Of a DNA stretch of 49,593 nucleotides, positions 2,774 through 33,633 are shown in pieces. Positions within the stretch are counted from its first letter, which is position 1. The number at the start of each line of letters is the position of its first letter. The stretch is from a candidate division WOR-3 bacterium. Lineage in GTDB: Bacteria; Hydrothermota; Tepidihabitantia; Tepidihabitantales; DTDR01. The translations under genes were made by a program, and so were the position numbers. The notes beneath the pieces are model-generated. The model ran no database searches and was not told the origin of the DNA. It worked only from the letters and a program-made list of their open reading frames with translations. The DNA is taken from assembly GCA_039801885.1 (NCBI GenBank), contig JBDRVN010000004.1, positions 1 through 49,593 on the forward strand. Reading direction: 5' to 3'.

Positions 2774-3043
2774 ATGGGGTTAACAAAAGAAAGAAAGAAA
2801 GAAGTAATTGAAAAGTTTAAAATTCATAATAAAGATACTGGTTCGCCAGAAGTCCAAATAGCTATTTTAACCGAAAGGATAAAACTCTTAACCGAACATC
2901 TACAAAAGCATAAAAAAGATAAACACTCGCGAAGAGGATTGATAAAATTAGTTAATCAAAGGCGGCGTCATCTTAATTATTTAATGAAATACCACAAAGA
3001 ACGTTATTTAAAAATAATTGAGAAACTTGGTTTGAAAGGATAA
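2774..3043 (+). CDS. rpsO: 30S ribosomal protein S15
   Basis: [27 protein letters not shown]. Confidence 0.98.
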
Positions 3044-5133
3044 TGAGTCATACCGAAGCAAAGATTGGGGATCGGATTTTATCCATCGAAACCGGTAGTC
3101 TGGCACGGCAGGCTGATGGAAGTGTTTTAATTCGTTATGGTGATACCATTGTTCTTACCACGGTTACTTATAAAAAAGAAAAAAATATTACTTTTCAAGA
3201 TTTTTTACCTTTGACTGTTGATTATCGGGAATTAGCCTATGCTGCCGGAAAAATTCCTGGTGGTTTTTTCAAAAGAGAAGGGAAACCAAGAGATAAAGAG
3301 ATTTTAGTTTCCCGTTTAATTGATCGTTCAATAAGGCCACTTTTCCCCAAGGGTTTTAATCAAGATATTCAAATTATTAGCTTTCTTCTTTCTTTTGACC
3401 AAGAAAATGAAGGTGATATTTTAGGAATTATTGGTGCTTCCGCTTGTTTACTTTTGTCGGAAATACCTTTCTCTCAACCGATTGCTGCTGTTAGAATTGG
3501 AAAAATTGATAATAAATATATAATCAACCCAACAATCAAAGAATTAGAAGTTTCGACTCTTGATTTAGTTGTCAGTGCTACTAAAGAGACGCCAGTGATG
3601 TTAGAGGGCGATGGCAGAGAGGTTCAACCTCAAGAAATTATTGAAGCCATTGAAATTGCTATGGAAGAAATAAGAAAAATTATTGAAGCCGAGGAAAGAC
3701 TAACTATTGGTATTACTAAATTAGAGATTCCTGAAAAATTGGTTCCGGAAGATTTTGAGAAGGAAGTAAAGGAATTGATAGAAGAAAAGGTAATACAGGC
3801 TTACCAAATTCTTGACAGAAAAGAGAGGCAAGAAAATTTAAGAAAAATCCGTGAAGAAACTTTTAATTTATTAAAAGAAAAATATCCTGATTGTGAAGGT
3901 CAAATTCAATATATAATAGAAGAGATTGCGCGAAAATATATGCGAGAATTAATTATTAACAAGCAAAAAAGAATAGACGGGAGAACACCTGATGAGATAC
4001 GTCCTCTTTCCTGCGCGGTTTCCATATTACCCAGAACCCATGGTTCGGCACTTTTTACCCGTGGACAAACCCAATGTTTGGCAGTGGTTACTTTGGGAAC
4101 AAAAAGTGACGAACAGATTGTTGATGATTTAGAAGGTGAAGGAACAAAACGTTTTATGCTTCATTACAATTTCCCTCCTTTTTCTACTGGTGAAATTAGA
4201 TCTTTGCGAGCACCAACAAGAAGAGAAATTGGACACGGTTTTTTAGCGGAGCGGGCTTTTAAACATCTTTTACCCAGTGAAGAGGAGTTCCCCTACACTA
4301 TAAGGGTTGTTTCGGACATTTTAGAATCTAATGGTTCTTCCTCAATGGCAACAGTTTGTGGAGCAACCTTATCGTTAATGGATGCGGGAGTACCGTTAAA
4401 AAAAGCAGTAGCCGGAATAGCAATGGGATTAGTAAAAGAGAATGATGATTATGTCATTTTAACTGATATTACCGGAACCGAGGACCACTATGGAGATATG
4501 GATTTTAAAATTGCTGGTACTAAAGATGGAATTACTGCTGTCCAATTGGATTTAAAAATTCAAGGAGTGTCCTTAAAAATTTTAAGAGAAACAATTGATA
4601 AGGCGCAACTAGCCCATAAAAAGATATTAGAGTTAATGGCAAAGTCAATTGACCAACCCCGAAAGTGCCTTTCTTCTTTTGCTCCTCGGGTATTTGCTTT
4701 TCAAATCCCTAAAGATAAGATTGGCGCGGTAATCGGTACCGGAGGCAAAGTTATAAGAAAAATAATTGATGAAACTACCACTGAGATTTTTATTGAAGAC
4801 GATGGGAAAATAATAATTTCCGGACCTAATGAAGAGGCGATTGAAAAAGCAAAGTCAAGAATTTTAGCAATTGTTGAAGATATTGAAGTTGGAAAAGTAT
4901 ATTTAGGAGAGGTTAAAAAAATAGCTCCTTTTGGTGTTTTCATAGAAATTGCGCCCGGAAAAGAAGGACTCTGCCATATCTCTCAATGGGCTGATTATCG
5001 AGTAAAAAATTTAGCAAATGAAGTTAAAGTTGGTGATAAAATTTTGGTTCGGGTGATTGCCATTGATGAAATGGGAAGGATTCAACTATCAAGAAAAACA
5101 GTGGGAAAGGATGATACAAAAAGAAAAAGTTAA
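3043..5133 (+). CDS. pnp: Polyribonucleotide nucleotidyltransferase
   Basis: DFLPLTVDY, RREIGHG, GDMDFKIAG, KH (IGTGGK) and S1 domains; follows rpsO. Confidence 0.98.
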   Translation: MSHTEAKIGDRILSIETGSLARQADGSVLIRYGDTIVLTTVTYKKEKNITFQDFLPLTVDYRELAYAAGKIPGGFFKREGKPRDKEILVSRLIDRSIRPLFPKGFNQDIQIISFLLSFDQENEGDILGIIGASACLLLSEIPFSQPIAAVRIGKIDNKYIINPTIKELEVSTLDLVVSATKETPVMLEGDGREVQPQEIIEAIEIAMEEIRKIIEAEERLTIGITKLEIPEKLVPEDFEKEVKELIEEKVIQAYQILDRKERQENLRKIREETFNLLKEKYPDCEGQIQYIIEEIARKYMRELIINKQKRIDGRTPDEIRPLSCAVSILPRTHGSALFTRGQTQCLAVVTLGTKSDEQIVDDLEGEGTKRFMLHYNFPPFSTGEIRSLRAPTRREIGHGFLAERAFKHLLPSEEEFPYTIRVVSDILESNGSSSMATVCGATLSLMDAGVPLKKAVAGIAMGLVKENDDYVILTDITGTEDHYGDMDFKIAGTKDGITAVQLDLKIQGVSLKILRETIDKAQLAHKKILELMAKSIDQPRKCLSSFAPRVFAFQIPKDKIGAVIGTGGKVIRKIIDETTTEIFIEDDGKIIISGPNEEAIEKAKSRILAIVEDIEVGKVYLGEVKKIAPFGVFIEIAPGKEGLCHISQWADYRVKNLANEVKVGDKILVRVIAIDEMGRIQLSRKTVGKDDTKRKS

Positions 5134-6385: not shown

Positions 6386-7372
6386 ATGGAAGTATTATTT
6401 TTAAGTCAAAAAGAAGTAATAAAAATTTTAAAAATGGATGTTGCTCTTAAAGCAGTAGAAAAAGCTTTTTACGAAAAAGGGATGGGACGTGTGATTATGC
6501 CTCCCAAGGTATATCTCTTTTATGAAAAATATCAAGGTGATATACGGGTAATGCCTTCTTATTTACCTACTTATGAAATTTCCGGAGTTAAAGTTGTAAA
6601 TGTCCATCCCAACAATCCTTTAAAATATAAATTACCTAGTGTAATGGCAACAATTATTTTAATTTCTCCTAAAAATGGCGCACCTTTAGCAATCTTAGAT
6701 GGGACAGCAATTACTAACATTCGAACTGGCGCAGCCGGAGGAATAGCTACAAAATATTTAGCACGAAAAAATGCTTCTACCCTTGCTTTAGTAGGTGCCG
6801 GTGTTCAAGCAGAAACTCAACTTTTAGCAATTGTCAAGGTGAGAAAAATTAAACAAGTTAGGATTTATGATATCAATGCTGAAATAGCAAAAAAATTTCA
6901 AAAGAAGTTTCAACCTCTTTTAAAAATCCCGATCGTTATCTGCTCTTCAATTGAAGAATGTGTTAAAGATGCTGATATAATTTCTACACAAACGCCCGTA
7001 AGAGAACCAATAATTAAAGTTGAATGGATAAAAACTGGTGCCCACATTAATGCCATTGGTGCTGATGCGCCAGGAAAAGAAGAACTGGATTGGGAGATAT
7101 TGAAAAAAGGGAAAGTCTATATTGATGATTGGGAACAAGCGTCTCATTCCGGAGAGATTAATGTTCCTTTAGAAAAAGGAATTATTAGCAAAGAAGATAT
7201 TAAAGGCGAAATTGGCGAGGTTATTTGTGGCAAAATTCCCGGTAGAGAAAAAGAAGAAGAAATTACTATTTTTGACTCAACAGGATTAGGAATTCAAGAT
7301 TTGGTGTGTGCTTATCAGGTATATAAAATTGCCAAGAGAAGAAAAATAGGCAAAAAGATTGCAATGCTTTAA
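6386..7372 (+). CDS. Ornithine cyclodeaminase/mu-crystallin family protein, probably archaeal-type alanine dehydrogenase
   Basis: MPPKVYL, GDIRVMP, RTGAAGGIATKYLAR, INAIGADAPGKEELD, FDSTGLGIQD. Confidence 0.85.
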   Translation: MEVLFLSQKEVIKILKMDVALKAVEKAFYEKGMGRVIMPPKVYLFYEKYQGDIRVMPSYLPTYEISGVKVVNVHPNNPLKYKLPSVMATIILISPKNGAPLAILDGTAITNIRTGAAGGIATKYLARKNASTLALVGAGVQAETQLLAIVKVRKIKQVRIYDINAEIAKKFQKKFQPLLKIPIVICSSIEECVKDADIISTQTPVREPIIKVEWIKTGAHINAIGADAPGKEELDWEILKKGKVYIDDWEQASHSGEINVPLEKGIISKEDIKGEIGEVICGKIPGREKEEEITIFDSTGLGIQDLVCAYQVYKIAKRRKIGKKIAML

Positions 7373-7401
7373 TTTAAATAATTAAGTAATCTTAATAATT
7401 G

Positions 7402-8556
7402 ATGAAGATTTTAATGGTTTCCGATGTCTATTTTCCTTATATGGGTGGTATCCCAGTGCACATTTATAATCTGGCTCAAGAATTGAGGAAGCGTAATCAT
7501 ACGGTAAAAATATTAACTACTAATTTTTCGAACAATCACATTTTCAAAATCGATAATGGATTATATAATAAAGAGGAAGATGAAAAATATATTTATCGTG
7601 TTGGAAGAGCGATGATTTTTCGTGCTAATAAATCTTTTGCTTCTTTTCCCATTGGCTGGCGGATGGGAATGAAAATAAAGGAAATATTAGAAGAAAATAA
7701 TTTTGATATTCTTCATATTCATGGATGTTTAGCTCCTCTTCTTCCTCTCTATGTTTTAAAATTTTCTAAAACAAAAAATATTATTACTCTTCATTCTTAT
7801 TTTAAAAATAGCTTAGGGTACATATTTTTTCGTCCTCTTTTGTATCCTTTCTTTAAAAAAATTCATGGAATTATCGCTGTCTCAAATGCTGCCAAAAAAG
7901 CTACGGAAAAATATTTCCCTGGCGAGTATTGGATAATTCCTAACGGAGTCAATATTAATTTCTTTAACCCTGATATTAAACCTTTGGAAGAATATTTAAA
8001 CCATTACCCGCGACTTTTGTTCGTAGGAAGATTTGAGCCACGAAAAGGTCTGAAGTATCTTTTGCAAGCTTTACCAATAATAAAAAAAGAATTTCCTAAT
8101 TTTTTACTTTTAGTTGTTGGAAAGGGAGTGTTGGGATATTCTTATCAAGAATATTTATCACCAGAAGTGAAAAAAAACGTCGTTTTCTGCGGCGCAGTGC
8201 CTTTGGAAAAATTGCCTAAATTTTATGCGACCTGTGATATTTTTGTGGCTCCTTCCATTGGTGCAGAAAGTTTTGGTATAGTTCTTTTAGAAGCAATGGC
8301 TTGCGGAAAACCGATTGTTGCTTCTAATATTCCTGGATATCGGGAGATCTTAGAAAACGGCAAAGAGGGTTTTTTAGTAAAACCTTGCGATTATCAAGAA
8401 ATAGCAGAAAAAGTAATTGAATTAGCAAAAGATAATCAGAAGGCAAAAGAAATGGGAAGATTTGGTCGAGAAAAGGCTTTAAATTATTCTTGGGAGAAAA
8501 TAAGCGATCGGGTGGAAAATTTTTATTACCAAGTAATTAATCAACAAAGATGGTAA
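7402..8556 (+). CDS. GT4 glycosyltransferase (PimA-like)
   Basis: YMGGIPVH, IIPNGV, FVGRFEPRKG, ESFGIVLLEAMACG; ATG 7402 follows the track TTG at 7399. Confidence 0.9.
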   Translation: MKILMVSDVYFPYMGGIPVHIYNLAQELRKRNHTVKILTTNFSNNHIFKIDNGLYNKEEDEKYIYRVGRAMIFRANKSFASFPIGWRMGMKIKEILEENNFDILHIHGCLAPLLPLYVLKFSKTKNIITLHSYFKNSLGYIFFRPLLYPFFKKIHGIIAVSNAAKKATEKYFPGEYWIIPNGVNINFFNPDIKPLEEYLNHYPRLLFVGRFEPRKGLKYLLQALPIIKKEFPNFLLLVVGKGVLGYSYQEYLSPEVKKNVVFCGAVPLEKLPKFYATCDIFVAPSIGAESFGIVLLEAMACGKPIVASNIPGYREILENGKEGFLVKPCDYQEIAEKVIELAKDNQKAKEMGRFGREKALNYSWEKISDRVENFYYQVINQQRW

Positions 8557-9881
8557 CTCCTAATACTCAAAAGAGTGAGTTTTTCAATCTTTTTAAGATA
8601 AAAAATTTTATGATTTTTTCCATTTCTCAATCTTTTTCTCTTTTTGGTGATAAATTAGATTATATGGCAATATTAGCAATGATTAGTTTTTTGGCACAAA
8701 AAAAAAATTTGAATGCCTCCCGAGCAATTTCTTTCCTTTCAATAATTATTACTTTACCCACTATCCTCTTTGGTCCTTTTGCAGGAGTTTTTATTGACCG
8801 ATGGGATAAAAAGAAAATTTTAATCTATTGTGATTTTTTTCGTGCTTTATTAGTTGCCTTTATTCCCTTTTTGATCCTTAATACTTTTAATTTATCTTTT
8901 GTTTATATAATTTGCTTTTTTGTATTTTTATTTGGTTTATTTTTTAACGCTACTCGTTTGTCTATTCTTCCTTATCTGGTAGCTAAAAGAAGACTTTTAG
9001 CAGCTAATTCTTTTAATAACTTATTAGGAAGAATTGCTACTCTTTTAGGTATGTTAGTTGGTGGATTTATCGTGGATTGGCAAATTTGGAAAAGAATTGG
9101 CATACCTTATAGCTGGGCAGCGGGTTTCTATATCGATTCTTTTACTTATTGGGTTTCGGTTTTGGCTTTGCTTTATCTTTTTACCAAAATAAAAATAAGA
9201 AAAATTTATATAGAAAATATGAATTTTCAGAAATCGAAAAATTTCTTTTATTTAATTTTATTTAATTTAAAATTGATGATTAATGATTTTAAAAATACTT
9301 CAAAATTTATTCTTAAAAATCAAAAAGTACAAATAGTAATGATTTCGATTTTTTTATTTGTAATTTTAGGAGCGGGAGCCTTGGTACTTTATGTGCCAAT
9401 TATTCAAGAGCGCGAAGGTCTTAAATTAGGAACTTCCGGTGTTGGGTTTTTAGGCACAATTGGTTCAATAGGTTTGATTTTGAGTTCATTAACCTATGGA
9501 ATTTGGGGACATAAATTTAAAAGAAAATTAGTATTAATTGTAAGTTTTTTTCTTTTCGGAATTTTAACGATGATTTTATCTTTTATTAAAATCGTACCTT
9601 TAGTAATTCTTTTGATTTTTATATGCGGTTTTTTGCTTTCACCAATCTTTGTAATTCAGGATACTATTTTACAAGAAAGCGTACCGGAGGAATTGCGGGG
9701 GAAAATTTTTTCTTTAAAAGAGTGGTTTTTGCATTTATTTTTTGGTATTTTTGCTTTTATTATTGGTCAGCTAACTTACTTTTTCCCAAGAACAAAAATT
9801 CTGTCTTTTATTGGGATTTTTGTTACATTTTCCTCATTGATTATTTTTCTTATTTATCGCCGTCAGGAAGAATTAACTTAA
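8550..9881 (+). CDS. MFS transporter
   Basis: About 12 hydrophobic segments, GVFIDRWDKKK motif A, LQESVPEELRGK; overlaps the GT4 stop. Confidence 0.85.
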   Translation: MVTPNTQKSEFFNLFKIKNFMIFSISQSFSLFGDKLDYMAILAMISFLAQKKNLNASRAISFLSIIITLPTILFGPFAGVFIDRWDKKKILIYCDFFRALLVAFIPFLILNTFNLSFVYIICFFVFLFGLFFNATRLSILPYLVAKRRLLAANSFNNLLGRIATLLGMLVGGFIVDWQIWKRIGIPYSWAAGFYIDSFTYWVSVLALLYLFTKIKIRKIYIENMNFQKSKNFFYLILFNLKLMINDFKNTSKFILKNQKVQIVMISIFLFVILGAGALVLYVPIIQEREGLKLGTSGVGFLGTIGSIGLILSSLTYGIWGHKFKRKLVLIVSFFLFGILTMILSFIKIVPLVILLIFICGFLLSPIFVIQDTILQESVPEELRGKIFSLKEWFLHLFFGIFAFIIGQLTYFFPRTKILSFIGIFVTFSSLIIFLIYRRQEELT

Positions 9882-10473
9882 TTTTAATTTTTTTATCAGA
9901 AGGGAAAAATTTGGTATTAAGAAGATATTTTTGGGAGAAAGATTTATTAATAAATTTTATTTCTTCTTCCAAAAAAGGACATTTTTTACAGTCGGCATAG
10001 CTTTCCTTTAAAATAAGATTATCCCAATAAGGGTCGCCAAGAAAAATCAAATTTAAAAAGTTAACAGGATTCTCTTTTGGGAAAATTAAACTCTCCACCG
10101 GTACTTCTTTTTCATTAACTATTATCAATACAGAAATTTTCCTTGTTAATTTTTTATAAACATATAAACTTTCCCATAAGACCCAATCTAAAAAAGCCAA
10201 AGCATTTTGTAAAGCAGTAAGCGGGATATTACTTAAGATACTTGCCTTTTCGTTTAACCATTCGTAACCTTTTAAATTTATTAAAAATTGGACTTCTCCT
10301 TTATTTTTATTTACTTCTCCAGGAAATATTATTATTTTATTTATACTGTCAACTATTAGATTTTTCTCTTCTAAATGAAAAAACGGCTTTTTACTCTTTT
10401 TAGTAAAAAGAAAAGTCAATAAGAAAAGAAAAACGAAAACTAAAAGAGAAATTATCCGAAAATTGATTTTCAT
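9850..10473 (-). CDS. Hypothetical membrane-anchored protein (possibly YdjY-like)
   Basis: N-terminal TM, IIIFPGEVNK, C-terminal CKKCP; coupled to the upstream sugar transferase. Confidence 0.4.
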   Translation of the reverse strand: MKINFRIISLLVFVFLFLLTFLFTKKSKKPFFHLEEKNLIVDSINKIIIFPGEVNKNKGEVQFLINLKGYEWLNEKASILSNIPLTALQNALAFLDWVLWESLYVYKKLTRKISVLIIVNEKEVPVESLIFPKENPVNFLNLIFLGDPYWDNLILKESYADCKKCPFLEEEIKFINKSFSQKYLLNTKFFPSDKKIKIKLILPDGDK

Positions 10474-24522: not shown

Positions 24523-25259
24523 CCAAAATAATTGTTGCTTTAGATGTTGATTCAATGCAAAAAGCAAGAAAGATTGTCGACCGTTTAAAAGGTTGGCCGG
24601 ATATGTTTAAAGTCGGTTTATATCTTTTTACTCGGGTTGGTCCTACTGTATTAAAAATGATAAAAGGATATAATGAGAAAATTTTTTTAGATCTAAAATT
24701 TTTTGATATTCCATCAATTGTGGAAAAGGCTTGTGAAAGTTGTCTAAAATGGCAGGTAGATATGTTCAATTTACATATCCTTGGCGGTTATGAGATGTTA
24801 AAAAGAGCAACCGATTTTGTTTTTAACTATTGTGAGAAAAAGATGATAAAAGAAAGACCAAAGATTATTGGTGTTACTTTATTAACAAGTTTTAAAGAAA
24901 ATAGTTTATTAGAAACTTTAAATATAAAAGAAGAAAATTTTCAAGATATGGTAATTAGACTGGCTTTAATTGCCAAAAGAGCAAATTTAGATGGTGTGGT
25001 TGCTTCGCCGAGAGATATAAAAAGGATTAAAGAAGAGTGTGGCAAAGATTTTTTAGTTGTTTCACCGGGAATTAGATTACCGGAAATAGAAATACCAAAA
25101 GATGACCAAGAAAGAACAATGACACCAAAAGAAGCTGCCGAAGTCGGTGCTGATTATATTGTAATTGGCAGACCAGTATTAAAAGCCGAAGACCCAATTG
25201 GATTAATATTAAAAATTAAAGAAGAGATAAAAAAAGTATATGAAACCAGAGGAAATTGA
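24519..25259 (+). CDS. pyrF: Orotidine 5'-phosphate decarboxylase
   Basis: IIVALD, FLDLKFFDIP, VSPGIR, DDQERTMTP, IVIGRP. Confidence 0.96.
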   Translation: MTKIIVALDVDSMQKARKIVDRLKGWPDMFKVGLYLFTRVGPTVLKMIKGYNEKIFLDLKFFDIPSIVEKACESCLKWQVDMFNLHILGGYEMLKRATDFVFNYCEKKMIKERPKIIGVTLLTSFKENSLLETLNIKEENFQDMVIRLALIAKRANLDGVVASPRDIKRIKEECGKDFLVVSPGIRLPEIEIPKDDQERTMTPKEAAEVGADYIVIGRPVLKAEDPIGLILKIKEEIKKVYETRGN

Positions 25260-25803
25260 AAAACTTTTGTTAAAATATCAGGTATTAAAAGAAGGACATT
25301 TTTTATTATCTTCTGGTTATCATTCCCAATATTATTTTGAAAAATTTCGGATTATTGAGCATCCAAGTTTACTAACCAAATTTTGCTCTTTAATTAAAAA
25401 AAATTTTAGAAGGAAAAAGATTGATATTGTTTGTGGACCAACAACCGGGGGCGCAATTATTGCCTATGAACTTGCCCGGCAATTAAACAAAAGATTAATA
25501 ATTGCTGAAAAAGAGAGTGAAAAAAGAGTAATAAAAAGAGGGTTTGTTATTAAGAAAACAGATAGAGTTTTAATTGTTGACGATGTTTTAACTACTGGTA
25601 ATTCAATAAGGGAAACAATCAATGCCTTAAAACCTTTTGGTTGTAAAATTACTGGTATTGCTGTTTTAATTGATAGAAGCACAAAAAAGATAAAAGATTT
25701 CAAATATTTTGCCCTTTACAAAAAAGAGGTGCCAATTTTTGCGAAAGAAGAATGCCCCCTTTGTAAAAATTATTTTCCCTTAGAAAGACCGGGTAGCGCC
25801 TAA
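25240..25803 (+). CDS. pyrE: Orotate phosphoribosyltransferase
   Basis: GHFLLSSGYHS, LIVDDVLTTG PRPP motif. Confidence 0.95.
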   Translation: MKPEEIEKLLLKYQVLKEGHFLLSSGYHSQYYFEKFRIIEHPSLLTKFCSLIKKNFRRKKIDIVCGPTTGGAIIAYELARQLNKRLIIAEKESEKRVIKRGFVIKKTDRVLIVDDVLTTGNSIRETINALKPFGCKITGIAVLIDRSTKKIKDFKYFALYKKEVPIFAKEECPLCKNYFPLERPGSA

Positions 25804-25818
25804 GAAATTTTTATCATA

Positions 25819-25847
25819 TTGACAAATTAAAGTTGATTCTCTATAAT
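25819..25847 (+). promoter_or_regulatory. Leaderless-type consensus promoter
   Basis: TTGACA 25819-25824, 17 nt, TATAAT 25842-25847, 7 nt, ATG 25855. Confidence 0.75.
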
Positions 25848-25854
25848 TAAAAAA

Positions 25855-27873
25855 ATGAAACTCTTTTTGATAATTTTATTTTTTTCTTTAGTAATAAAGG
25901 GATATCCAATATTTAATACGGATAGTGCTTATTTTCATCTTAAAGAAGAGATGGATAAATATCATAAAACTTTTGATGTCTATACTGATATGGATGCTGG
26001 CGGAAATCATTATCTACCAACTGAAATAATGAATAGCGAAGCAATTTCTTTAACCCAGACTTGTACATTAGGAATGTATTCGGGAATTACCTGTATAAAA
26101 GCAATTTATTTTGCTCAGCAAGCAGAATGGGCAGGTGTTGGTTGGTATGATTCTCTTGGTTATGATTTGACCGGTGCTGAAACCTGCTCTTTTTGGGCAA
26201 AAGGTGAAAATGGCGGAGAAGTTATTAGGTTTGAAGTTGGCGGACCTTATGATTCTATTTACCGTTCAATAACCGTTATTCTTTCCGATACTTGGCAAAA
26301 ATATTACATAGATTTGCGTGGTGGTAATTTAAGAAATTTAAAAAGAGGTTTCTGCTTTGTGGCGGAAAGAACAAATAACCCTTCTGGTTGCACTTTCTAT
26401 CTTGATGATATAAAATTTGATTTGGCGAGACTTGATTCATTAAGGCTTATCCACACTTATTTACCCTTATTTTATCGTCACGACCAAAAATGGGCATTAA
26501 ACCAAGCATATACTTATCCGAATGTCTTAGCAATGCTTGCCTTTATGAAAAGAAGAAATCCTGACGACATTCGTCGGGCAAGAATTATTGGCGATGCCTT
26601 TGTTTTTGCTCAAAATTATGACCGATTTTATCAAGATGGCCGCTTAAGAAATGCTTACCGAACAGGCGATATTAAAGACCATCATACTGGAAAGGCTTTA
26701 CTTCCGGGATGGTGGGATGATTCTTTATCTTTATGGTGTGAGGATAAATATCAAGTTGGGACCTATACCGGCGAAATGGCTTGGTTAATATTATCTTGGC
26801 TTATTTATGATTCAATTACGCAGGAAAGGCGATATCTATCAAATGCTATCCGTTTGGGAAATTGGATTGCTGATAGTTGTTATGATTCCACAGGTATTCC
26901 TGGTTATACCGGCGGTTTTGAAGGTTTTGAGCAACCACCGGAAAGCCTTAAAAAATTAAGATGGAAATCAACCGAACATAATCTTGACCTATATGTTGCC
27001 TTTACTTGGTTATTTAGGCTTACTCAGAACCCAATTTGGCAAATAAGAGGAGAAAGGGCATTAAATTTTGTAAAAGCAATGTGGGATTCTATTTCTGGTT
27101 ATTTTTGGTGCGGCACAAAAGAAGATGGAACAATAGATACCCTTTTAGTTTTAGATGCCCAAACCTGGGGGTTAATTGCTACCTGTGATAGTAATCGCTA
27201 CCGACAGGCTCTCGTTTCTGCCGAGAACAACTGTCGCCGAGAAACATTAGGATATAAAGGATTTTGTTTTAGCGAAAGGGGAGATGGAATATGGTGGGAA
27301 GGAACAGGTCAAATGATTTGTGCCTATCAATTTATTGGTCAATATGAAAAAACTGATACCTTTCTTAATCAATTAAGAATCTGGCAGCGATTATCTCCTT
27401 ACGGTAATAATAAAGGAATTGTTGCCTGTCATCCAGAAAGTTCTTATACGGGAATTAATCGATTTTGGGGACCTTGGTATTACTTTCCAAGATTAGATAT
27501 TGGTGCCACTTCTTGGTATATCTTTGCCGAAAACCGCTATAACCCATTTTGGAACGACACATTTCCGCTTCCTCCTTCGGCAATCAATAAAGAAGATAAA
27601 TTACCTCCAAAAATAAAAACCAAAAACTTTTTTACTCCCTTTGGTTCAAAATTTCTTATCTGCTTACCCGAAAGAGAGATAATTAAAATAAAAATTTATA
27701 GTATTAAAGGTGATTTGGTTGCTATCTTACTTGACAAAAATAAAAAAGATACCAATTTTATCCTTTGGAACGGAACGGATAAAAAAGGTAAAAAATTACC
27801 TTCTGGTATCTATTTTATATCAATAATTAGTGATAAATTAAAATTAACAGAAAAAATTATTATAAAAAATTAA
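25855..27873 (+). CDS. Secreted protein: CBM-like domain, glycosidase-like alpha/alpha barrel and FlgD-Ig/T9SS-like tail
   Basis: Signal-like N-terminus; YDLTGAETCSFWAKGENGGE...WQKYYIDL CBM-like segment; WKSTEHNLD and WWEGTGQ motifs; tail WNGTDKKGKKLPSGIYF. Confidence 0.55.
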   Translation: MKLFLIILFFSLVIKGYPIFNTDSAYFHLKEEMDKYHKTFDVYTDMDAGGNHYLPTEIMNSEAISLTQTCTLGMYSGITCIKAIYFAQQAEWAGVGWYDSLGYDLTGAETCSFWAKGENGGEVIRFEVGGPYDSIYRSITVILSDTWQKYYIDLRGGNLRNLKRGFCFVAERTNNPSGCTFYLDDIKFDLARLDSLRLIHTYLPLFYRHDQKWALNQAYTYPNVLAMLAFMKRRNPDDIRRARIIGDAFVFAQNYDRFYQDGRLRNAYRTGDIKDHHTGKALLPGWWDDSLSLWCEDKYQVGTYTGEMAWLILSWLIYDSITQERRYLSNAIRLGNWIADSCYDSTGIPGYTGGFEGFEQPPESLKKLRWKSTEHNLDLYVAFTWLFRLTQNPIWQIRGERALNFVKAMWDSISGYFWCGTKEDGTIDTLLVLDAQTWGLIATCDSNRYRQALVSAENNCRRETLGYKGFCFSERGDGIWWEGTGQMICAYQFIGQYEKTDTFLNQLRIWQRLSPYGNNKGIVACHPESSYTGINRFWGPWYYFPRLDIGATSWYIFAENRYNPFWNDTFPLPPSAINKEDKLPPKIKTKNFFTPFGSKFLICLPEREIIKIKIYSIKGDLVAILLDKNKKDTNFILWNGTDKKGKKLPSGIYFISIISDKLKLTEKIIIKN

Positions 27874-27968
27874 GAAAAACCTATTATTAGGTTATAATAT
27901 TATCTAAAATTTTTATACCAATTAGGATATCCACAGGGTTTATCAGTAATACACTTTCTAAGAGAAAC

Positions 27969-28112
27969 GATAATAATATTATTAGAATGAATAACAATAC
28001 CTTTATTAAAATTAACGATAATACCCTTATTAGAATTAATGATAATACCCTTATGTAAACGAATAACAAGAGGCTTATTAAAGGAAGCAATAAGAGAGTT
28101 ATTAAGACGAGT
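27969..28112. repeat. Degenerate 24-nt tandem repeat, 6 units
   Basis: Units start at 27969, 27993, 28017, 28041, 28065 and 28089; best-conserved unit GATAATACCCTTATTAGAATTAAT. Confidence 0.8.
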
Positions 28113-28119
28113 AAAATAC

Positions 28120-28147
28120 GATAGGGGGAGACGTTCCCTATCTTTTT
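28120..28147 (+). terminator. Intrinsic terminator
   Basis: GATAGGG/CCCTATC stem (28120-28126/28136-28142), extendable by two G-U pairs, then TTTTT. Confidence 0.75.
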
Positions 28148-28210
28148 GTTGAATCTAAAATAACTATTTGAAATATAAAGACTTATAAGAAATTTCTACC
28201 TTAAAAATTT

Positions 28211-28225
28211 TTGCATGCTATGCAA
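28211..28225. promoter_or_regulatory. Palindromic operator candidate TTGCAT-N3-ATGCAA
   Basis: Perfect 6+6 inverted repeat ending 1 nt before the -35 box of the HTH gene. Confidence 0.5.
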
Positions 28226-28226
28226 C

Positions 28227-28254
28227 TTGAAATAAAATCTTTAATGGTTATAAT
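28227..28254 (+). promoter_or_regulatory. Leaderless-type promoter of the XRE-HTH gene
   Basis: TTGAAA 28227-28232, 16 nt, TATAAT 28249-28254, 6 nt, ATG 28261. Confidence 0.65.
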
Positions 28255-28260
28255 AAGGTG

Positions 28261-29133
28261 ATGTTAAGAAAATTTATAGGAAAGTTATTAAAAGAAATGA
28301 GGAAAGAAAGGGGATATAGTTTAAAAGAGATTGCCAAATATTGTAGAAAAAGTGTAAGTGATTTATCAAGATTAGAAAAGGGCAAGATTAAAAACCCTTC
28401 CATATTTTTAATTTTAAATTATTTAAAGACAATAAATATTCATTATGGAGAATTTTTCAGCAAAATCCAAGGATATGAAATAGAAAACTTATTAAAAATG
28501 AAAGAGAAAGCGAAAATAGTGAATGGGATGGGATTGGTAAGAAAAGAGATTCGTTATAGTTTAGGATTAAAGTTTCAGAAAAAACCTTTTATTAATTACC
28601 CCGAAGAGTTAGAATGGAAGATAAAAAATTATTTGCTTCCTTTTGGTTACGAACCTTCAATAGTTAGAAAATATATCAAGTTTAGTGAAAAGGTATTTTA
28701 TGGTCTTTTAGATGGAAAAGATGAAAATTATTTTCAAGAGATAAATAAAAAGGCAGAAGAAGAAAATTTAGATAAACTTCTTTTAGCAAAAATAGCAAAA
28801 ATTACTTACGAGGCTTACAAAAGGGCATTAAAAAGAATAAATCAAGTAAAACCAATAACTGATAAAAAGATGAAAAGAATGGCTGAAGGCTATTTAAAAT
28901 ATTGGAGTAAGTGGATAAGATTAGAATATTTGATAAAAAAATATTTATGTGAAAAAGGGGTGCCCTTGCCTTTACATTTTTATTATCTAAACAAGGCAAA
29001 GAAATATCACAAACTATTAAAGAAAAACAGATTAGAGAAGATAAAAGAAATAGATGAAAAGGCAATAAAAGAAGGTTTAGAAAAAGAGATATTAGAGAAA
29101 ATAAAAGAGATTATAAAGGAAAGAGATAAATAA
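28261..29133 (+). CDS. XRE-family HTH protein with a duplicated C-terminal helical domain
   Basis: LKEMRKERGYSLKEIAKYCRKSVSDLSRLEKG XRE HTH; internal repeat aa 118-183 / 222-286 (track numbering from GTG 28258). Confidence 0.8.
   Translation: MLRKFIGKLLKEMRKERGYSLKEIAKYCRKSVSDLSRLEKGKIKNPSIFLILNYLKTINIHYGEFFSKIQGYEIENLLKMKEKAKIVNGMGLVRKEIRYSLGLKFQKKPFINYPEELEWKIKNYLLPFGYEPSIVRKYIKFSEKVFYGLLDGKDENYFQEINKKAEEENLDKLLLAKIAKITYEAYKRALKRINQVKPITDKKMKRMAEGYLKYWSKWIRLEYLIKKYLCEKGVPLPLHFYYLNKAKKYHKLLKKNRLEKIKEIDEKAIKEGLEKEILEKIKEIIKERDK
29015..29117 (+). repeat. Direct repeat copy 1 (3' end of the HTH gene)
   Basis: 103 bp; 93/103 identical to 30659-30761 by manual ungapped alignment. Confidence 0.9.
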
Positions 29134-29142
29134 ATCTTTTGA

Positions 29143-29171
29143 TTGACAAGAAAATATTTATTGGTTAAAAT
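29143..29171 (+). promoter_or_regulatory. Leaderless-type promoter
   Basis: TTGACA 29143-29148, 17 nt, TAAAAT 29166-29171, 5 nt, ATG 29177. Confidence 0.7.
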
Positions 29172-29176
29172 AAAAA

Positions 29177-30610
29177 ATGAAGAAAATTTTAGAATCGGTA
29201 ATTTTATTATTAATTTTAGTATCTTTATTTTCAGTGGCTTTTGCTCAATGGGAGCCGGATGTACGACTAACATGGAATGATAGTTCTTCGACCACAAGTT
29301 TTAATAATGTCCGTAACATTGCTGCTGGATCCAATGGAACTTTACATGTAGTGTGGGTGGATTGTCGAACAGGAGTTAGTCAAATCTATTATAAACGTTC
29401 AACCGATCGAGGAACGACTTGGTCTCCCGATACCAATCTGACCGATGCCAGTGGATTGAAAGCAGATCCTAACCTCGCAGTAGTTGGTGAAACGCTCCAT
29501 CTTGTCTGGGAGGACCACCGTTGGGGTTATCCCGGAGCAATTATGTATCGAAAGTCAACAGATAATGGCATAACTTGGTTACCAGAACAATGTATCAATG
29601 CCAATAACTGGAACTCTCGTAATCCTGCGGTTGCTGCCGAGGGAAGTATAGTTCATGTTGCTTGGGCTAGTGATTCAGTAGGTAGAGAAATCTATTACAT
29701 TCGCTCAACCGACAATGGCGTAACCTGGACTGACCGCCGTCGGTTGACATTTGATATGCAGGAATCTTGGTATCCCTCAATTGCCGCTTCGGGTCAGTTT
29801 GTGCATCTTGCTTGGCGAGACTGGCGTGATCACAGTTTTGAAATATATTATCTCCGTTCTACTGACCGAGGCGCAACATGGGATAGCATACCCATACGCA
29901 TATCTGGTGATCTAACAACTGGTTCTTATAATCCCAGTTTATGTGTTTCAGATTCATACGTGCATATTGTATGGTTTGACACTCGTCACACTCCTTTTGA
30001 ATTGTACTATCGCCATTCCTCAAATAACGGAAGAACTTGGGATATGCCCGAAATGCGACTTACCGAAGACTCAAGTGGCTCTTACAATCCGACAATCTGT
30101 GCTGATGGTCCGAATATTCATGTAGTCTGGGAAGCGTTACTTGGCACATCTGACATCTATCATAAAATGTCCACCAACTATGGAATAAGTTGGGGACCAG
30201 AGACCCGACTTACTAATGACCAGTTTTACTCGGTTTTCCCATCTGCGGCATTACTTGATTCCGGTATCCATGTTGTCTGGACTGATTTCCGAGATAATGA
30301 ATACGGCGAAATCTACTACAAAAGAAATCTGAGAGGTAATCAGGTAGCGATTGCTAAGTCTTCCGAACCAATGTTTAATTATCCACACTTATCCGCCACC
30401 ATTGTCGGTGGTGTTCTATTTTTACCAAGGATATCAAACGTCAAGGAGAATACTTCTTGTTTTCTAATTAATATCACTGGCCAAAAAGTTAAAGAACTTT
30501 TACCTGGTCCAAACGATATACGACAATTAACTTCAGGAATCTATTTCATCTTTCAGCAGAATAGAAAAGGTAATTGGCAGTTGGAAAAGAAAATAGTCAT
30601 TCAGCACTAA
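29177..30610 (+). CDS. Secreted BNR/Asp-box repeat (sialidase-like propeller) protein with T9SS-like C-terminal domain
   Basis: Signal peptide ending AFA-Q; six SxDxGxTW-type boxes (STDRGTTW, STDNGITW, STDNGVTW, STDRGATW, SSNNGRTW, STNYGISW); tail NITGQKVKEL...SGIYF. Confidence 0.8.
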   Translation: MKKILESVILLLILVSLFSVAFAQWEPDVRLTWNDSSSTTSFNNVRNIAAGSNGTLHVVWVDCRTGVSQIYYKRSTDRGTTWSPDTNLTDASGLKADPNLAVVGETLHLVWEDHRWGYPGAIMYRKSTDNGITWLPEQCINANNWNSRNPAVAAEGSIVHVAWASDSVGREIYYIRSTDNGVTWTDRRRLTFDMQESWYPSIAASGQFVHLAWRDWRDHSFEIYYLRSTDRGATWDSIPIRISGDLTTGSYNPSLCVSDSYVHIVWFDTRHTPFELYYRHSSNNGRTWDMPEMRLTEDSSGSYNPTICADGPNIHVVWEALLGTSDIYHKMSTNYGISWGPETRLTNDQFYSVFPSAALLDSGIHVVWTDFRDNEYGEIYYKRNLRGNQVAIAKSSEPMFNYPHLSATIVGGVLFLPRISNVKENTSCFLINITGQKVKELLPGPNDIRQLTSGIYFIFQQNRKGNWQLEKKIVIQH

Positions 30611-30658
30611 CCAAATATTTTAAGGACATACGAATTTATAAACAAAATAGATATTATT

Positions 30659-30761
30659 TATTAAAGAAAAACAGATTAGAGAAGATAAAGGAGACAGATG
30701 AAAAGGCAATAAAAGAAGGCTTAAAGAAAGAGATATTAGACGGAATAAAAGGGATTATAAA
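30659..30761 (+). repeat. Direct repeat copy 2: orphan 3' fragment of the HTH gene family
   Basis: Encodes LLKKNRLEKIKETDEKAIKEGLKKEILDGIKGII, matching the C-terminus of the HTH protein; no 5' part. Confidence 0.85.
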
Positions 30762-30777
30762 AGATGCGACAAAAAAT

Positions 30778-31481
30778 TTATTTAATTAACTCCTTTAATT
30801 TATCAAAATAAGGATAATTTAATTCTTGGAGAAGAAAAAGAAAATACTCAATATTTTCTCCTCTTTCCTTTGCTTTTTTAATCTTTTCTGCAAGCAATTC
30901 CGGTTCTAAGATATTTAATAATTCATCAATTTTCTGATAACCTATTTCTTTTAAAGCCACCAATAATGAATACCTGCCTATTTTCTAAATTTTTTATAAT
31001 TTCACAAACCTCTTCTCTTTCAACAATATAACCTTTCTCAAAATCAATCCATAAAGGACCTTGCCAACGAAAGAAATGAGGCTCATTATATTTTTCGTCA
31101 CCCCTTTTAAGATATTTTTCTATTTTTATTAATCCCAATCTTTTTAATTTTGAAGCAATAAATTCCTTTTCCATAATGGATGCTCTCTTTTTTAAATCCA
31201 TAATAATAAAAAATAAAAATGCCATTAATATTATTAAAATAATGCTATATATCCAATTTGAAAAAAATTTCCCAATTTCTATCCTCCAAAAAGATAGTAT
31301 AAACATTATTATACTTACTATCATACCTATTATACCTACAACAATAGTCCAGTAGGTACTTTTTTCTATTTTTTTTCTTATAAGATAGGTAATTTCCTAA
31401 GACTATCAAAAGGACGATAAGGAAAAATATAGAAATACCTGTAGGTATTAGATTAATAATAAAAACTATTAAATTACCCAT
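30778..31481 (-). pseudogene. Frameshifted, internally deleted membrane-anchored protein gene, probable P-loop/STAND NTPase remnant
   Basis: Three overlapping minus-strand frames (31245-31484, 30926-31324, 30778-30963). An A8 run (31369-31376) breaks a TM-encoding frame. IVEREEV..IIKNLENRQVFIIGG stops where a Walker A would begin. Confidence 0.6.
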
Positions 31482-31488
31482 CAAGTTA

Positions 31489-31516
31489 ATTTTATAAAAA
31501 TTAACCTATTTGTCAA
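31489..31516 (-). promoter_or_regulatory. Leaderless-type promoter of the pseudogene
   Basis: TTGACA 31516-31511, 16 nt, TAAAAT 31494-31489, 7 nt, ATG 31481. Confidence 0.65.
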
Positions 31517-31521
31517 TCAAT

Positions 31522-31549
31522 TTGACATTATTTATTTTTTTGTTAATAT
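31522..31549 (+). promoter_or_regulatory. Leaderless-type promoter with extended -10
   Basis: TTGACA 31522-31527, TG at 31541-31542, TAATAT 31544-31549, 6 nt, ATG 31556. Confidence 0.7.
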
Positions 31550-31555
31550 TTATCT

Positions 31556-32245
31556 ATGATATTTATTTTATCTTTAATAATTTTTAATCAAACCTATCTT
31601 ATCGATAACCCTTCACCAAGTTTTTTAAGCCATGGTGAATATTTAATTGGATTTAGACTACAAGGAAATAATGGGATAATGGCAAATTTTGGGATTGGAC
31701 TTTTTGATAGGTTAAATATGGGTGTCTCTTATTCGGGTGATAGTATTTTAGGTAGTGGTAAGCCAACCTTTCCCCAAAAAAGAGGACCAGAATTCCAAAT
31801 CCGTTTAAAAATTGTTGGCGAAGAGAGTTTTGTTTTTCCCGATATAATTCTTGGTTTTGATACCCAAGGATTTGGTAGTTATGATTCTGCTAAAAACGGT
31901 TATGCCGTTCCCGAAAAGACGTTTTATCTTTTATTAGGCAAAACAATTGATTTTACAAACACCAATATTTCCGGTGGAGTTAATTATCGGGATAAAGTTA
32001 ATTTCTTTTTATCAATAAGCCAATTATTACCAAGTGATTTTAATTTGATATTAGAATATTCTTCTTCTTTTTATGATAAAATAAGAGATATTAAAAAATA
32101 TGGCTTTTTAAATACAGGAATTGCTTGGAATTTTAGTGAGCAGGTTCGTTTTCTTTTTGCTTTAAGAGAGATTATTAAAAATCACGAAAATAATAATTGC
32201 CATTTAAATCGGATTGTTTATATAACTTTTCAATCCGGTTTTTAA
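31556..32245 (+). CDS. Hypothetical outer-membrane protein (YjbH-like)
   Basis: LIDNPSPSFLSHGEY, GLFDRLNMGVSY; beta-strand pattern ending in Phe. Confidence 0.45.
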   Translation: MIFILSLIIFNQTYLIDNPSPSFLSHGEYLIGFRLQGNNGIMANFGIGLFDRLNMGVSYSGDSILGSGKPTFPQKRGPEFQIRLKIVGEESFVFPDIILGFDTQGFGSYDSAKNGYAVPEKTFYLLLGKTIDFTNTNISGGVNYRDKVNFFLSISQLLPSDFNLILEYSSSFYDKIRDIKKYGFLNTGIAWNFSEQVRFLFALREIIKNHENNNCHLNRIVYITFQSGF

Positions 32246-32997: not shown

Positions 32998-33633
32998 ATG
33001 ATGGGATTATTAGGTAAGAAATTAAAAATGACTCAACTATTTGATGAGAAGGGAAAAGTAATTCCGTGCACGATTGTGAGACTTGGTCCTTGTTATGTCG
33101 TGCAAAAGAAAGTGAAAGAGAAAGATAATTATTGTGCTATCCAATTAGGGTTTGAGAAGAAGAAAAAGGGAAACAAACCAATTGCTGGTCATTTTAAAAA
33201 AGCAAATTTACCGGTTTTAAGATATCTAAAGGAATTTAAAGTGGATAATCCTGATGGGTTTGAATTAGGAAAAGAATTAAAAATTAAAGATGTTTTTAAA
33301 GAAGGCGATTTAGTAGATGTAACTGGCTGGACAAAAGGCAGAGGTTTTGCTGGTGGTATGAAAAGATGGGGATGGAAAGGCGGACCAGCTTCTCACGGCT
33401 CCCAATCCCATCGTCGAATAGGTTCTTTGGGAAGTGGAACCAGTCCGGGAAGACCTTGGAAAGGAAGAACTTTACCAGGACATTATGGTTGTGAAAAGGT
33501 AACTATCAAAAATTTAAAGATTATAAAAATTGATGAAGAAAATCATTTGGCTTATATCTCCGGTGCTATTCCAGGCTATTCTAATAGTTTAGTAATAGTT
33601 AAAAAAGCAAAAAGTGCTATTAAAAAATTATGA
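32998..33633 (+). CDS. rplC: 50S ribosomal protein L3
   Basis: GKKLKMTQ, TKGRGFAG, SHGS, PGHYG. Confidence 0.98.
   Translation: MMGLLGKKLKMTQLFDEKGKVIPCTIVRLGPCYVVQKKVKEKDNYCAIQLGFEKKKKGNKPIAGHFKKANLPVLRYLKEFKVDNPDGFELGKELKIKDVFKEGDLVDVTGWTKGRGFAGGMKRWGWKGGPASHGSQSHRRIGSLGSGTSPGRPWKGRTLPGHYGCEKVTIKNLKIIKIDEENHLAYISGAIPGYSNSLVIVKKAKSAIKKL

Follow-up and report, generated by a model that had tools for sequence, protein, structure and literature searches.

In this study, we analyzed a 49,593-nt stretch of DNA (the window) from the metagenome-assembled genome (MAG) of a candidate division WOR-3 bacterium (1.56 Mb in 70 contigs, 30.9% GC, 91% complete), in which the 3' end of a gene encoding an XRE-family helix-turn-helix (HTH) regulator occurs twice, as direct repeats on either side of a single cargo gene for a BNR/Asp-box beta-propeller protein. 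Our findings suggest that this is an insertion-duplication allele that has probably been moved, homogenised, and deleted by general homologous recombination. The BNR gene, with its own promoter, would have been inserted once at the end of the HTH gene, leaving two copies of the last ~104 bp of that gene. The left copy (R1) and a new 5-codon tail (tail 1) would keep the regulator intact, and the right copy (R2) with the old tail (tail 2) would be the displaced remnant. The filled allele could then enter other strains and species via RecA-type homologous recombination, with crossovers on the left in the HTH gene or upstream of it and on the right in R2 or in the downstream gene for a 229-aa protein. 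Gene conversion may exchange sequence between the two repeats, and recombination between R1 and R2 would remove the 1644-bp unit and restore an intact HTH gene in which the R1 body is joined to the R2 tail. A dedicated recombinase would not be needed for any of these steps.

R1 and R2 align without gaps at an offset of 1644 bp, with 95 of 106 positions identical (self-BLAST E 1.4e-32), including all of the first 31 nt. Over the slightly shorter span given in the first-pass annotation of this DNA (29015-29117 versus 30659-30761), we obtained the same count that it had reported, 93/103, and it was also right about what lies between the copies (the end of the HTH gene, a promoter match, and the BNR-repeat gene) and about the missing 5' part of the second copy. 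A search of the whole 1.56-Mb genome with the 106-nt unit matched just R1 and R2 (E 3e-35), leaving the expectation of further copies without support; the next-best matches spanned at most 63 nt at 76% identity and lay in purine-rich, Lys/Glu-coding DNA. The HTH gene product has an N-terminal HTH_3 domain (Pfam, E 2e-9) and an uncharacterised C-terminal region. Its reading frame is kept by the insertion, given that R1 and tail 1 complete a 291-aa open reading frame (ORF). R2 is also in frame and runs into the different tail KDATKNLFN*. Tail 1 is confined to filled alleles, as KERDK in the species of the window (species 1) and as KKRDK in a second species (species 2).

The state that preceded the insertion is seen in relatives that are empty at this site. 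In four of them (G003, G005, the Logan contig L084, and L090, with G005 and L090 belonging to species 2), pyrE is followed by the HTH gene and then by the 229-aa gene, with a gap of ~35-85 nt between the latter two, and the orthologues placed in this order in G003, G005, and L084 identify the HTH gene as the host of the insertion. HTH proteins of these empty relatives end in KDVIKKGRLLN, KEKGKLLN, or KEKIELFN, and an orthologue in a different genomic context (G004) ends in KEATKKII; all empty alleles finish in tail-2-like sequence. The DNA to the right of R2 is orthologous to the DNA to the right of the HTH stop codon in the empty relatives, matching both G005 and a filled strain of species 2 (strain D). 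Given the orthology downstream and the tail-2-like ends, R2 and tail 2 stand in the ancestral right-hand context, and by this comparison the insertion is 1644 bp long and extends from R1 through the spacer, or corresponds to any rotation of that unit. The cargo had previously been proposed to enter through paralogous HTH 3' ends. Insertion into the HTH 3' end is borne out by the empty relatives, in all of which the 229-aa gene directly follows the HTH gene, but the ends are not paralogous, and the repeats instead represent the end of a single gene in two versions, allelic or orthologous. The related proposal of cassette exchange keyed on the HTH family did not hold, given that the one paralogue found by tblastn (C16:9386-10285), which has 40% aa identity and lies convergently to a BNR-like gene of 832 aa, shares neither the repeat DNA nor the layout, and that its 3' end has no second copy anywhere in the genome.

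Variation within species 1 captures the allele in three states. The window represents strain A, and exact-protein look-ups led us to strain B (L054, GCA_039801925.1) and strain C (L055, GCA_965649235.1), which are 99.6-99.7% identical to the window. All alleles compared here were assembled contigs (MAG contigs, a Logan contig, and a Logan unitig), and the sampled strains come from what looks like a single hot-spring system. Strain B is filled. In 12.9 kb, it mismatches the window at 47 positions, 11 of them inside R2, where all 10 R1/R2 differences are turned into the R1 state. A new T-to-C variant is present in both of its copies (29055/30699), and its repeats are 100% identical over 104 nt, compared to the 10% divergence between the copies of strain A. 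The identical repeats are unlikely to be a k-mer (de Bruijn) chimera, given that the variant sites are at most 24 nt apart. Strain C has no cassette, and its 294-aa HTH protein (P0122) equals the window protein through an R1-type repeat and then continues into tail 2 (KDATKKLFN), followed by the same downstream genes as in the window. The single repeat of strain C shows 1-2 differences from window R1 in the first 104 nt, and this HTH gene is the exact product that would be expected from a crossover between R1 and R2, which lends support to the possible excision of the unit raised in the first-pass annotation. No cluster of single-nucleotide polymorphisms (SNPs) marking an imported empty allele was found in the flanks of strain C. 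The left-flank SNPs pair strain B with strain C (13 sites unique to A versus 4 and 4), so a single deletion would account for strain C. The most economical history would be a filled ancestor, conversion of R2 by R1 in the line leading to B and C, and deletion in C; we infer this direction of events, with strain C as the deletion product and strain B as the conversion product.

The filled allele also appears to have spread between species. Species 2 and the window are 14-18% divergent across the pyr and ribosomal genes that flank the locus, and species 2 likewise has both states, with strain D (L056, GCA_039801765.1) filled and G005 and L090 empty. Several further MAGs carry one of the two HTH haplotypes, filled (tail KKRDK) or empty. 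The layout is, hence, variable among relatives, with filled and empty alleles in two species. Outside a 3.5-kb tract (D 6472-10003), strain D and G005 are 99.98% identical, with a single difference in 4.9 kb to the left and another in 4.8 kb to the right. Within the tract, which includes the cassette, there are ~55 differences, a pattern that marks replacement of the allele by a double homologous crossover. Because this whole tract was imported, the D copies are uninformative on the native state of the repeats. In strain F (L089), a species-2 MAG, the left half of R2 resembles the right copy of D and the right half resembles the empty (G005) allele, and a breakpoint therefore lies inside the repeat. 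Strain E (L088, GCA_039801825.1) carries the D block at ~100% identity from the HTH gene to position ~3090 within the downstream gene, past which its flank is 82-89% identical to D versus 92-97% to the window; by this measure, it is a very recent transfer into a third genomic background. Compared at the third codon positions of conserved residues, the window and D were 90% identical for the HTH gene, 90% for the BNR gene, and 83% for the 229-aa gene, against 62-73% for most pyr and ribosomal genes and 80% for pyrE. All filled alleles have tail 1, the promoter, and the spacer/R2 junction in common, which argues for one founding event and points to a single origin of the cassette allele. The promoter-bearing segment (29121-29176) is 98% identical to that of the species-2 cassette, and the junction (ATTATTTATT/AAAG) is common to the window and species 2, with the rest of the spacer 52% identical between the species. 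That the repeats are recombinationally active is supported by both the identical R1 and R2 of strain B and the mosaic R2 of strain F.

Table 1. Features of the filled HTH locus in the window.
Feature	Start	End	Strand	Description
XRE-family HTH gene	28258	29133	+	291 aa from GTG 28258 or 290 aa from ATG 28261; from the ORF list
R1, left copy	29015	29120	+	Functional C-terminal 35 codons of the HTH gene (LLKKNRLEKIKEIDEKAIKEGLEKEILEKIKEIIK)
Tail 1	29121	29133	+	Replacement C-terminus ERDK plus stop (13 nt)
Cargo promoter, sigma-70-like	29143	29171	+	TTGACA-17 nt-TAAAAT, 11/12 consensus matches; predicted from the consensus alone
Cargo gene (BNR_2)	29177	30610	+	477-aa BNR/Asp-box beta-propeller protein
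Spacer	30611	30658	+	48 nt, from the cargo stop codon to R2
R2, right copy	30659	30764	+	Displaced HTH 3' end without a 5' part
Tail 2	30765	30789	+	Ancestral C-terminus DATKNLFN plus stop, in ancestral right-hand context

The cargo gene matches the Pfam families BNR_2 (3e-13) and BNR (7e-10), and its homologues are named 'sialidase family' by NCBI. Its product has a predicted signal peptide and a match to Por_Secre_tail, the sorting tail of the type IX secretion system (T9SS), at 6.6e-4 and 20.4 bits, below the cut-off. As the first-pass annotation had recognized, the gene is GC-rich (41.6% GC versus 30.9% for the genome); its GC content at third codon positions (GC3) is 34%, compared to 17-26% in neighbouring genes, and the parts encoding the signal peptide and the tail are AT-rich, like the host. 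No BNR homologue above 42% identity was found in the five other representative genomes of the genus (the congeners), and the closest relatives outside the cassette, at 77% and 66-67% identity, are in WOR-3 genomes of 52-59% GC with no adjoining HTH gene. Scans of JGI metagenomes and GTDB with the BNR protein returned only relatives of at most 77% identity, all away from an HTH context, and an exact-protein look-up returned no record. Given that close homologues are lacking in the congeners and that the nearest relatives are in WOR-3 genomes of 52-59% GC, the cargo is, judged by its sequence, a horizontal acquisition that has been partly adapted to the AT-rich host. As part of the explanation that we favor, a WOR-3 lineage of higher GC content is its likely original source.

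Scanning the whole genome for local direct repeats gave one clean second case, on contig C54 (L071). Here, the last 165 nt of a YchF ATPase gene (C54 691-855) recur at 3025-3189 with 89% identity, and the repeats bracket a gene for a metallohydrolase of the CehA/McbA family (683 aa) that has a T9SS sorting domain. G005, G003, and G002 are empty at this locus, with YchF followed directly by the downstream gene. The gene-end-duplication layout is, thus, a recurrent outcome in this genome and not the property of one gene family.

We considered whether the 1644-bp unit (repeat, tail 1, promoter, BNR gene, and spacer) could itself be a recombinase-free mobile cassette that exits as a circle through R1/R2 recombination and enters a new genome by a single crossover within the 104-bp gene end. 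The first-pass annotation had proposed a system free of recombinases, and no recombinase is linked to the cassette; the sole gene encoded in the unit is BNR. Over 104 nt, R2 of the window has 3 differences to the species-2 left copy and 4 to the species-2 empty allele, compared to 12 to the species-2 right copy and 11 to its own R1, and a derived Lys-to-Glu change is common to window R1 and the species-2 right copy. The two repeat types, defined by few sites, hence occupy swapped positions in species 1 and species 2. This pattern would fit excision of a circle and re-entry with a shifted crossover, of which so few sites give only a hint, and the same swap would be expected from unequal crossing-over or from a donor with homogenised repeats. 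We regard a mobile cassette of this kind as unlikely. If it did exist, the gene end would act as a portable address and provide a regular route for the uptake of T9SS cargo genes in small-genome WOR-3 bacteria, at the YchF locus as well. Two simpler views of the repeats were rejected. R2 is not a decaying copy of R1 at this locus, given that it is closer to the species-2 orthologues than R1 is and that both copies have derived states, and neither 'R1 native, R2 foreign' nor the reverse fits all alleles.

It is also improbable that the repeats are a passive scar, in which one old insertion duplicated the gene end, all later variation came from allelic replacement through long flanks, and R1 and R2 never recombine with one another. 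The clearest transfers (D versus G005, and strain E) are indeed long-flank replacements, and at the YchF locus, the non-functional right copy has 10 unique changes versus 4 in the left copy, as simple decay predicts. However, the copies of strain B are identical over 104 nt and share a lineage-specific variant, whereas those of its sister strain A are 10% divergent. The breakpoint inside R2 of strain F and the exact hybrid of R1 body and R2 tail in strain C, with flanks free of the SNP cluster of an imported empty allele, likewise argue for exchange between the repeats.

A non-autonomous site-specific integrative element (CIME- or e14-like), with the repeats as attL and attR, a fixed core, and an integrase encoded elsewhere, would resemble the locus in several respects but appears to us distinctly improbable. 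In the icd/e14/icdC arrangement of Escherichia coli K-12 (Hill et al. 1989; re-analysed in PMC13626634), a protein gene carries an insert in its 3' end. As in the window, a slightly altered version of the gene end adjoins the insert and keeps the gene intact, the original end survives beyond the insert as a pseudogene that lacks a 5' part, and loss of the insert gives a chimeric functional gene. The unit analyzed here likewise restores the interrupted gene with its own surrogate gene end and so preserves the HTH reading frame, R1 and R2 begin with a shared 31 nt, the junctions are the same in three species, and the second locus is also at a gene 3' end. In contrast, e14 is 15 kb long, has its own integrase, and undergoes SOS-induced site-specific excision, whereas this unit is 1.6 kb long, with one cargo gene, no integrase or other recombinase, and variable homologous breakpoints. 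The genome has two matches to tyrosine recombinases (PF00589), ~300 aa long, Xer-like, and on contig C1, and no serine recombinase (PF00239). We found neither a dedicated recombinase nor a fixed core that returns the native end. The traceable transfers are long tracts with differing ends (D 6472-10003, E to ~3090, and F inside R2), and strain C combines an R1-type repeat with tail 2, unlike what excision at a left-end core would leave. The homology also continues upstream from the divergence of the two tails, beyond what an att site requires. A transposon or insertion sequence carrying the gene as a passenger does not fit, given that the ORF list of the unit has no transposase, its ends have no terminal inverted repeats (the inverted-repeat list holds weak AT-rich pairs), and the duplication is 104 bp rather than a short target-site duplication. 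No Rfam family matched in a scan of 27800-31600. An assembly artefact, in which a GC-richer foreign gene was joined to the contig at a chance repeat, is hardly credible: although we worked with a metagenome-assembled genome, the GC content of the cargo is foreign, and the contigs of G001 break on both sides of the locus, the order HTH-R1-BNR-R2 recurs in independent assemblies of species 1, 2, and 3, so that five assemblies would need the same error, the signal-peptide and tail parts of the cargo are host-like in composition, and a Logan unitig from raw reads (L068, SRR27730045), linear and ending inside the repeats, runs R1-BNR-R2. The misassembly against which the first-pass annotation had cautioned is contradicted by the order seen in two other MAG assemblies of species 1, in species 2, and in this unitig.

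Several points weigh against the movement, homogenisation, and deletion of the allele by general homologous recombination. Strain C could be the ancestral empty state, with strain B a separate gain. Every allele was also read from MAG contigs, and in assembly, the loop between identical repeats could be left out, which would produce the empty site of strain C. By a few sites, R2 of the window is nearer to the left than to the right copy of species 2, and to account for this, one would have to assume a register-shifted exchange (by a circle or an unequal crossover) or a donor, absent from the sample, whose repeats had been homogenised. Neither RecA (PF00154) nor ComEC, a sign of natural competence, was found in this 91%-complete MAG. 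RecA is present in 5/5 congeners, and it is most likely missing from the assembly of this MAG. Finally, the founding 104-bp duplication is not what classical homology-facilitated illegitimate recombination would lead one to expect, as that process normally deletes recipient DNA (PMC5361080 and its references). A single crossover with a circular molecule bearing a captured gene end would yield such a duplication; we infer both the circular intermediate and the mechanism of the founding event.

Even with these points, general homologous recombination remains the explanation that we favor, and it relates the locus to further known systems. Campbell-type insertion-duplication and the reverse 'pop-out' deletion between direct repeats are established in bacterial genetics, usually as an outcome of laboratory plasmid work. 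The window agrees with this scheme in that the insert lies between direct copies of one target segment, empty relatives have a single copy, and no dedicated recombinase is involved. The empty allele of strain C consists of the HTH body, one hybrid copy made up of an R1-type repeat and tail 2, and ancestral downstream DNA (on a MAG contig), and exchange between the copies has occurred with variable breakpoints (identical copies in strain B and a mosaic right copy in strain F). Unlike the laboratory case, this is a natural allele, old enough for the copies to have diverged by 10% and spread over three species. Flexible genomic islets of free-living bacteria are exchanged by homologous recombination in conserved flanks. 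The BNR gene is similar in being a strain-variable gene at a fixed position on the chromosome, with core genes on its two sides (pyrE and the ribosomal protein operon), replaced or added via flank homology, with filled and empty strains sharing one habitat, and it differs in that the internal gene-end duplication provides a second, very short homology for gain and loss. In Rhs, contact-dependent inhibition (CDI), and type VI secretion system (T6SS) loci, C-terminal displacement and arrays of orphan modules are ascribed to homology-facilitated illegitimate recombination (PMC5361080 and references therein). As in those loci, the incoming block is anchored in a conserved part of the gene, the old 3' end persists downstream as a fragment (here, R2 and tail 2), and the process is horizontal and recombinase-free. 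However, Rhs, CDI, and T6SS loci exchange toxic C-terminal domains together with immunity genes, whereas here only 5-9 codons of a regulator change (ERDK for DATKNLFN), the cargo stands apart from the regulator as a gene for a predicted secreted protein (with a signal peptide) under its own promoter, and a duplication was created rather than a replacement.

As it stands, the locus is a well-documented case of known processes and not a new mechanism or mobility system. It would provide a natural example, from an uncultivated thermophilic lineage, of an accessory gene that was gained, kept without damage to the host gene, homogenised, passed between species, and lost by means of homology only, with all intermediate allelic states sampled. 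For annotators, it indicates that gene-end duplications need not signal an integrase-borne island. If the short repeat alone suffices for transfer, it would be a minimal form of gene mobility.

The surroundings of the locus are variable as well. Upstream of the HTH gene, a gene for a 672-aa T9SS-tailed protein (25812-27937) is another insertion, present in strains A, B, and C and in G001 and absent from species 2, G003, and L084. A third insertion, at 30812-31508, is absent from species 2 and carries broken minus-strand ORFs of 132 and 61 aa in the window, 99 and 60 aa in strain B, and 184 and 60 aa in strain C; a 1-nt indel at 31369 is among the changes that shift the frame from strain to strain. 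No flanking duplications were found around either of these neighbouring insertions. In the gene for ribosomal protein L3, a tight cluster of differences of strain C from A and B at 33474-33507 suggests a short imported recombination tract. In strain F, an IS481-family transposase gene and an unrelated gene for a FlgD_ig protein (L089 2495-3583) follow the cassette and R2, in place of the 229-aa gene. The empty-type HTH gene of species 2, as on contig C1 of G005 (L029), has lost 1 nt from a T run (TTACATTTT-TATTAT) in several MAGs (P0128, P0129, P0133, and P0135), which shortens its product to 242 aa, or to 239 aa in a single partial call. The gene is intact in L090 (296 aa, P0138). In G001, the closest representative genome, contigs C3 (end) and C34 (start) break at HTH codon 80 and at window position ~32269, on both sides of the variable locus, and the HTH fragment groups with the species-2 haplotype (P0131).

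Of the other local direct-repeat pairs in the genome, which are paralogous T9SS tails or loci of greater complexity, those on C34, C22, C30, and C35 gave no clean analogue of the HTH and YchF loci. On C34 and C22, the repeats are probably T9SS tails, paralogous between adjacent genes. The pair on C35 (6654-6885 and 9290-9521, 92% identity over 233 nt around a three-gene block) has an arrangement that is conserved in G005; the inner block is absent from G003, G002, and G004. The pair on C30 involves a dispersed repeat, a ~170-nt sequence (C30:9782-9947; L073 ~2783-2948) with many copies at 72-85% identity on different contigs of G001, G003, G004, and G005, making it an unclassified dispersed repeat of the genus. 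On C18, direct repeats at 25186-25368 and 28148-28326, 96% identical over 183 nt, surround a gene for a copA-like P-type ATPase.

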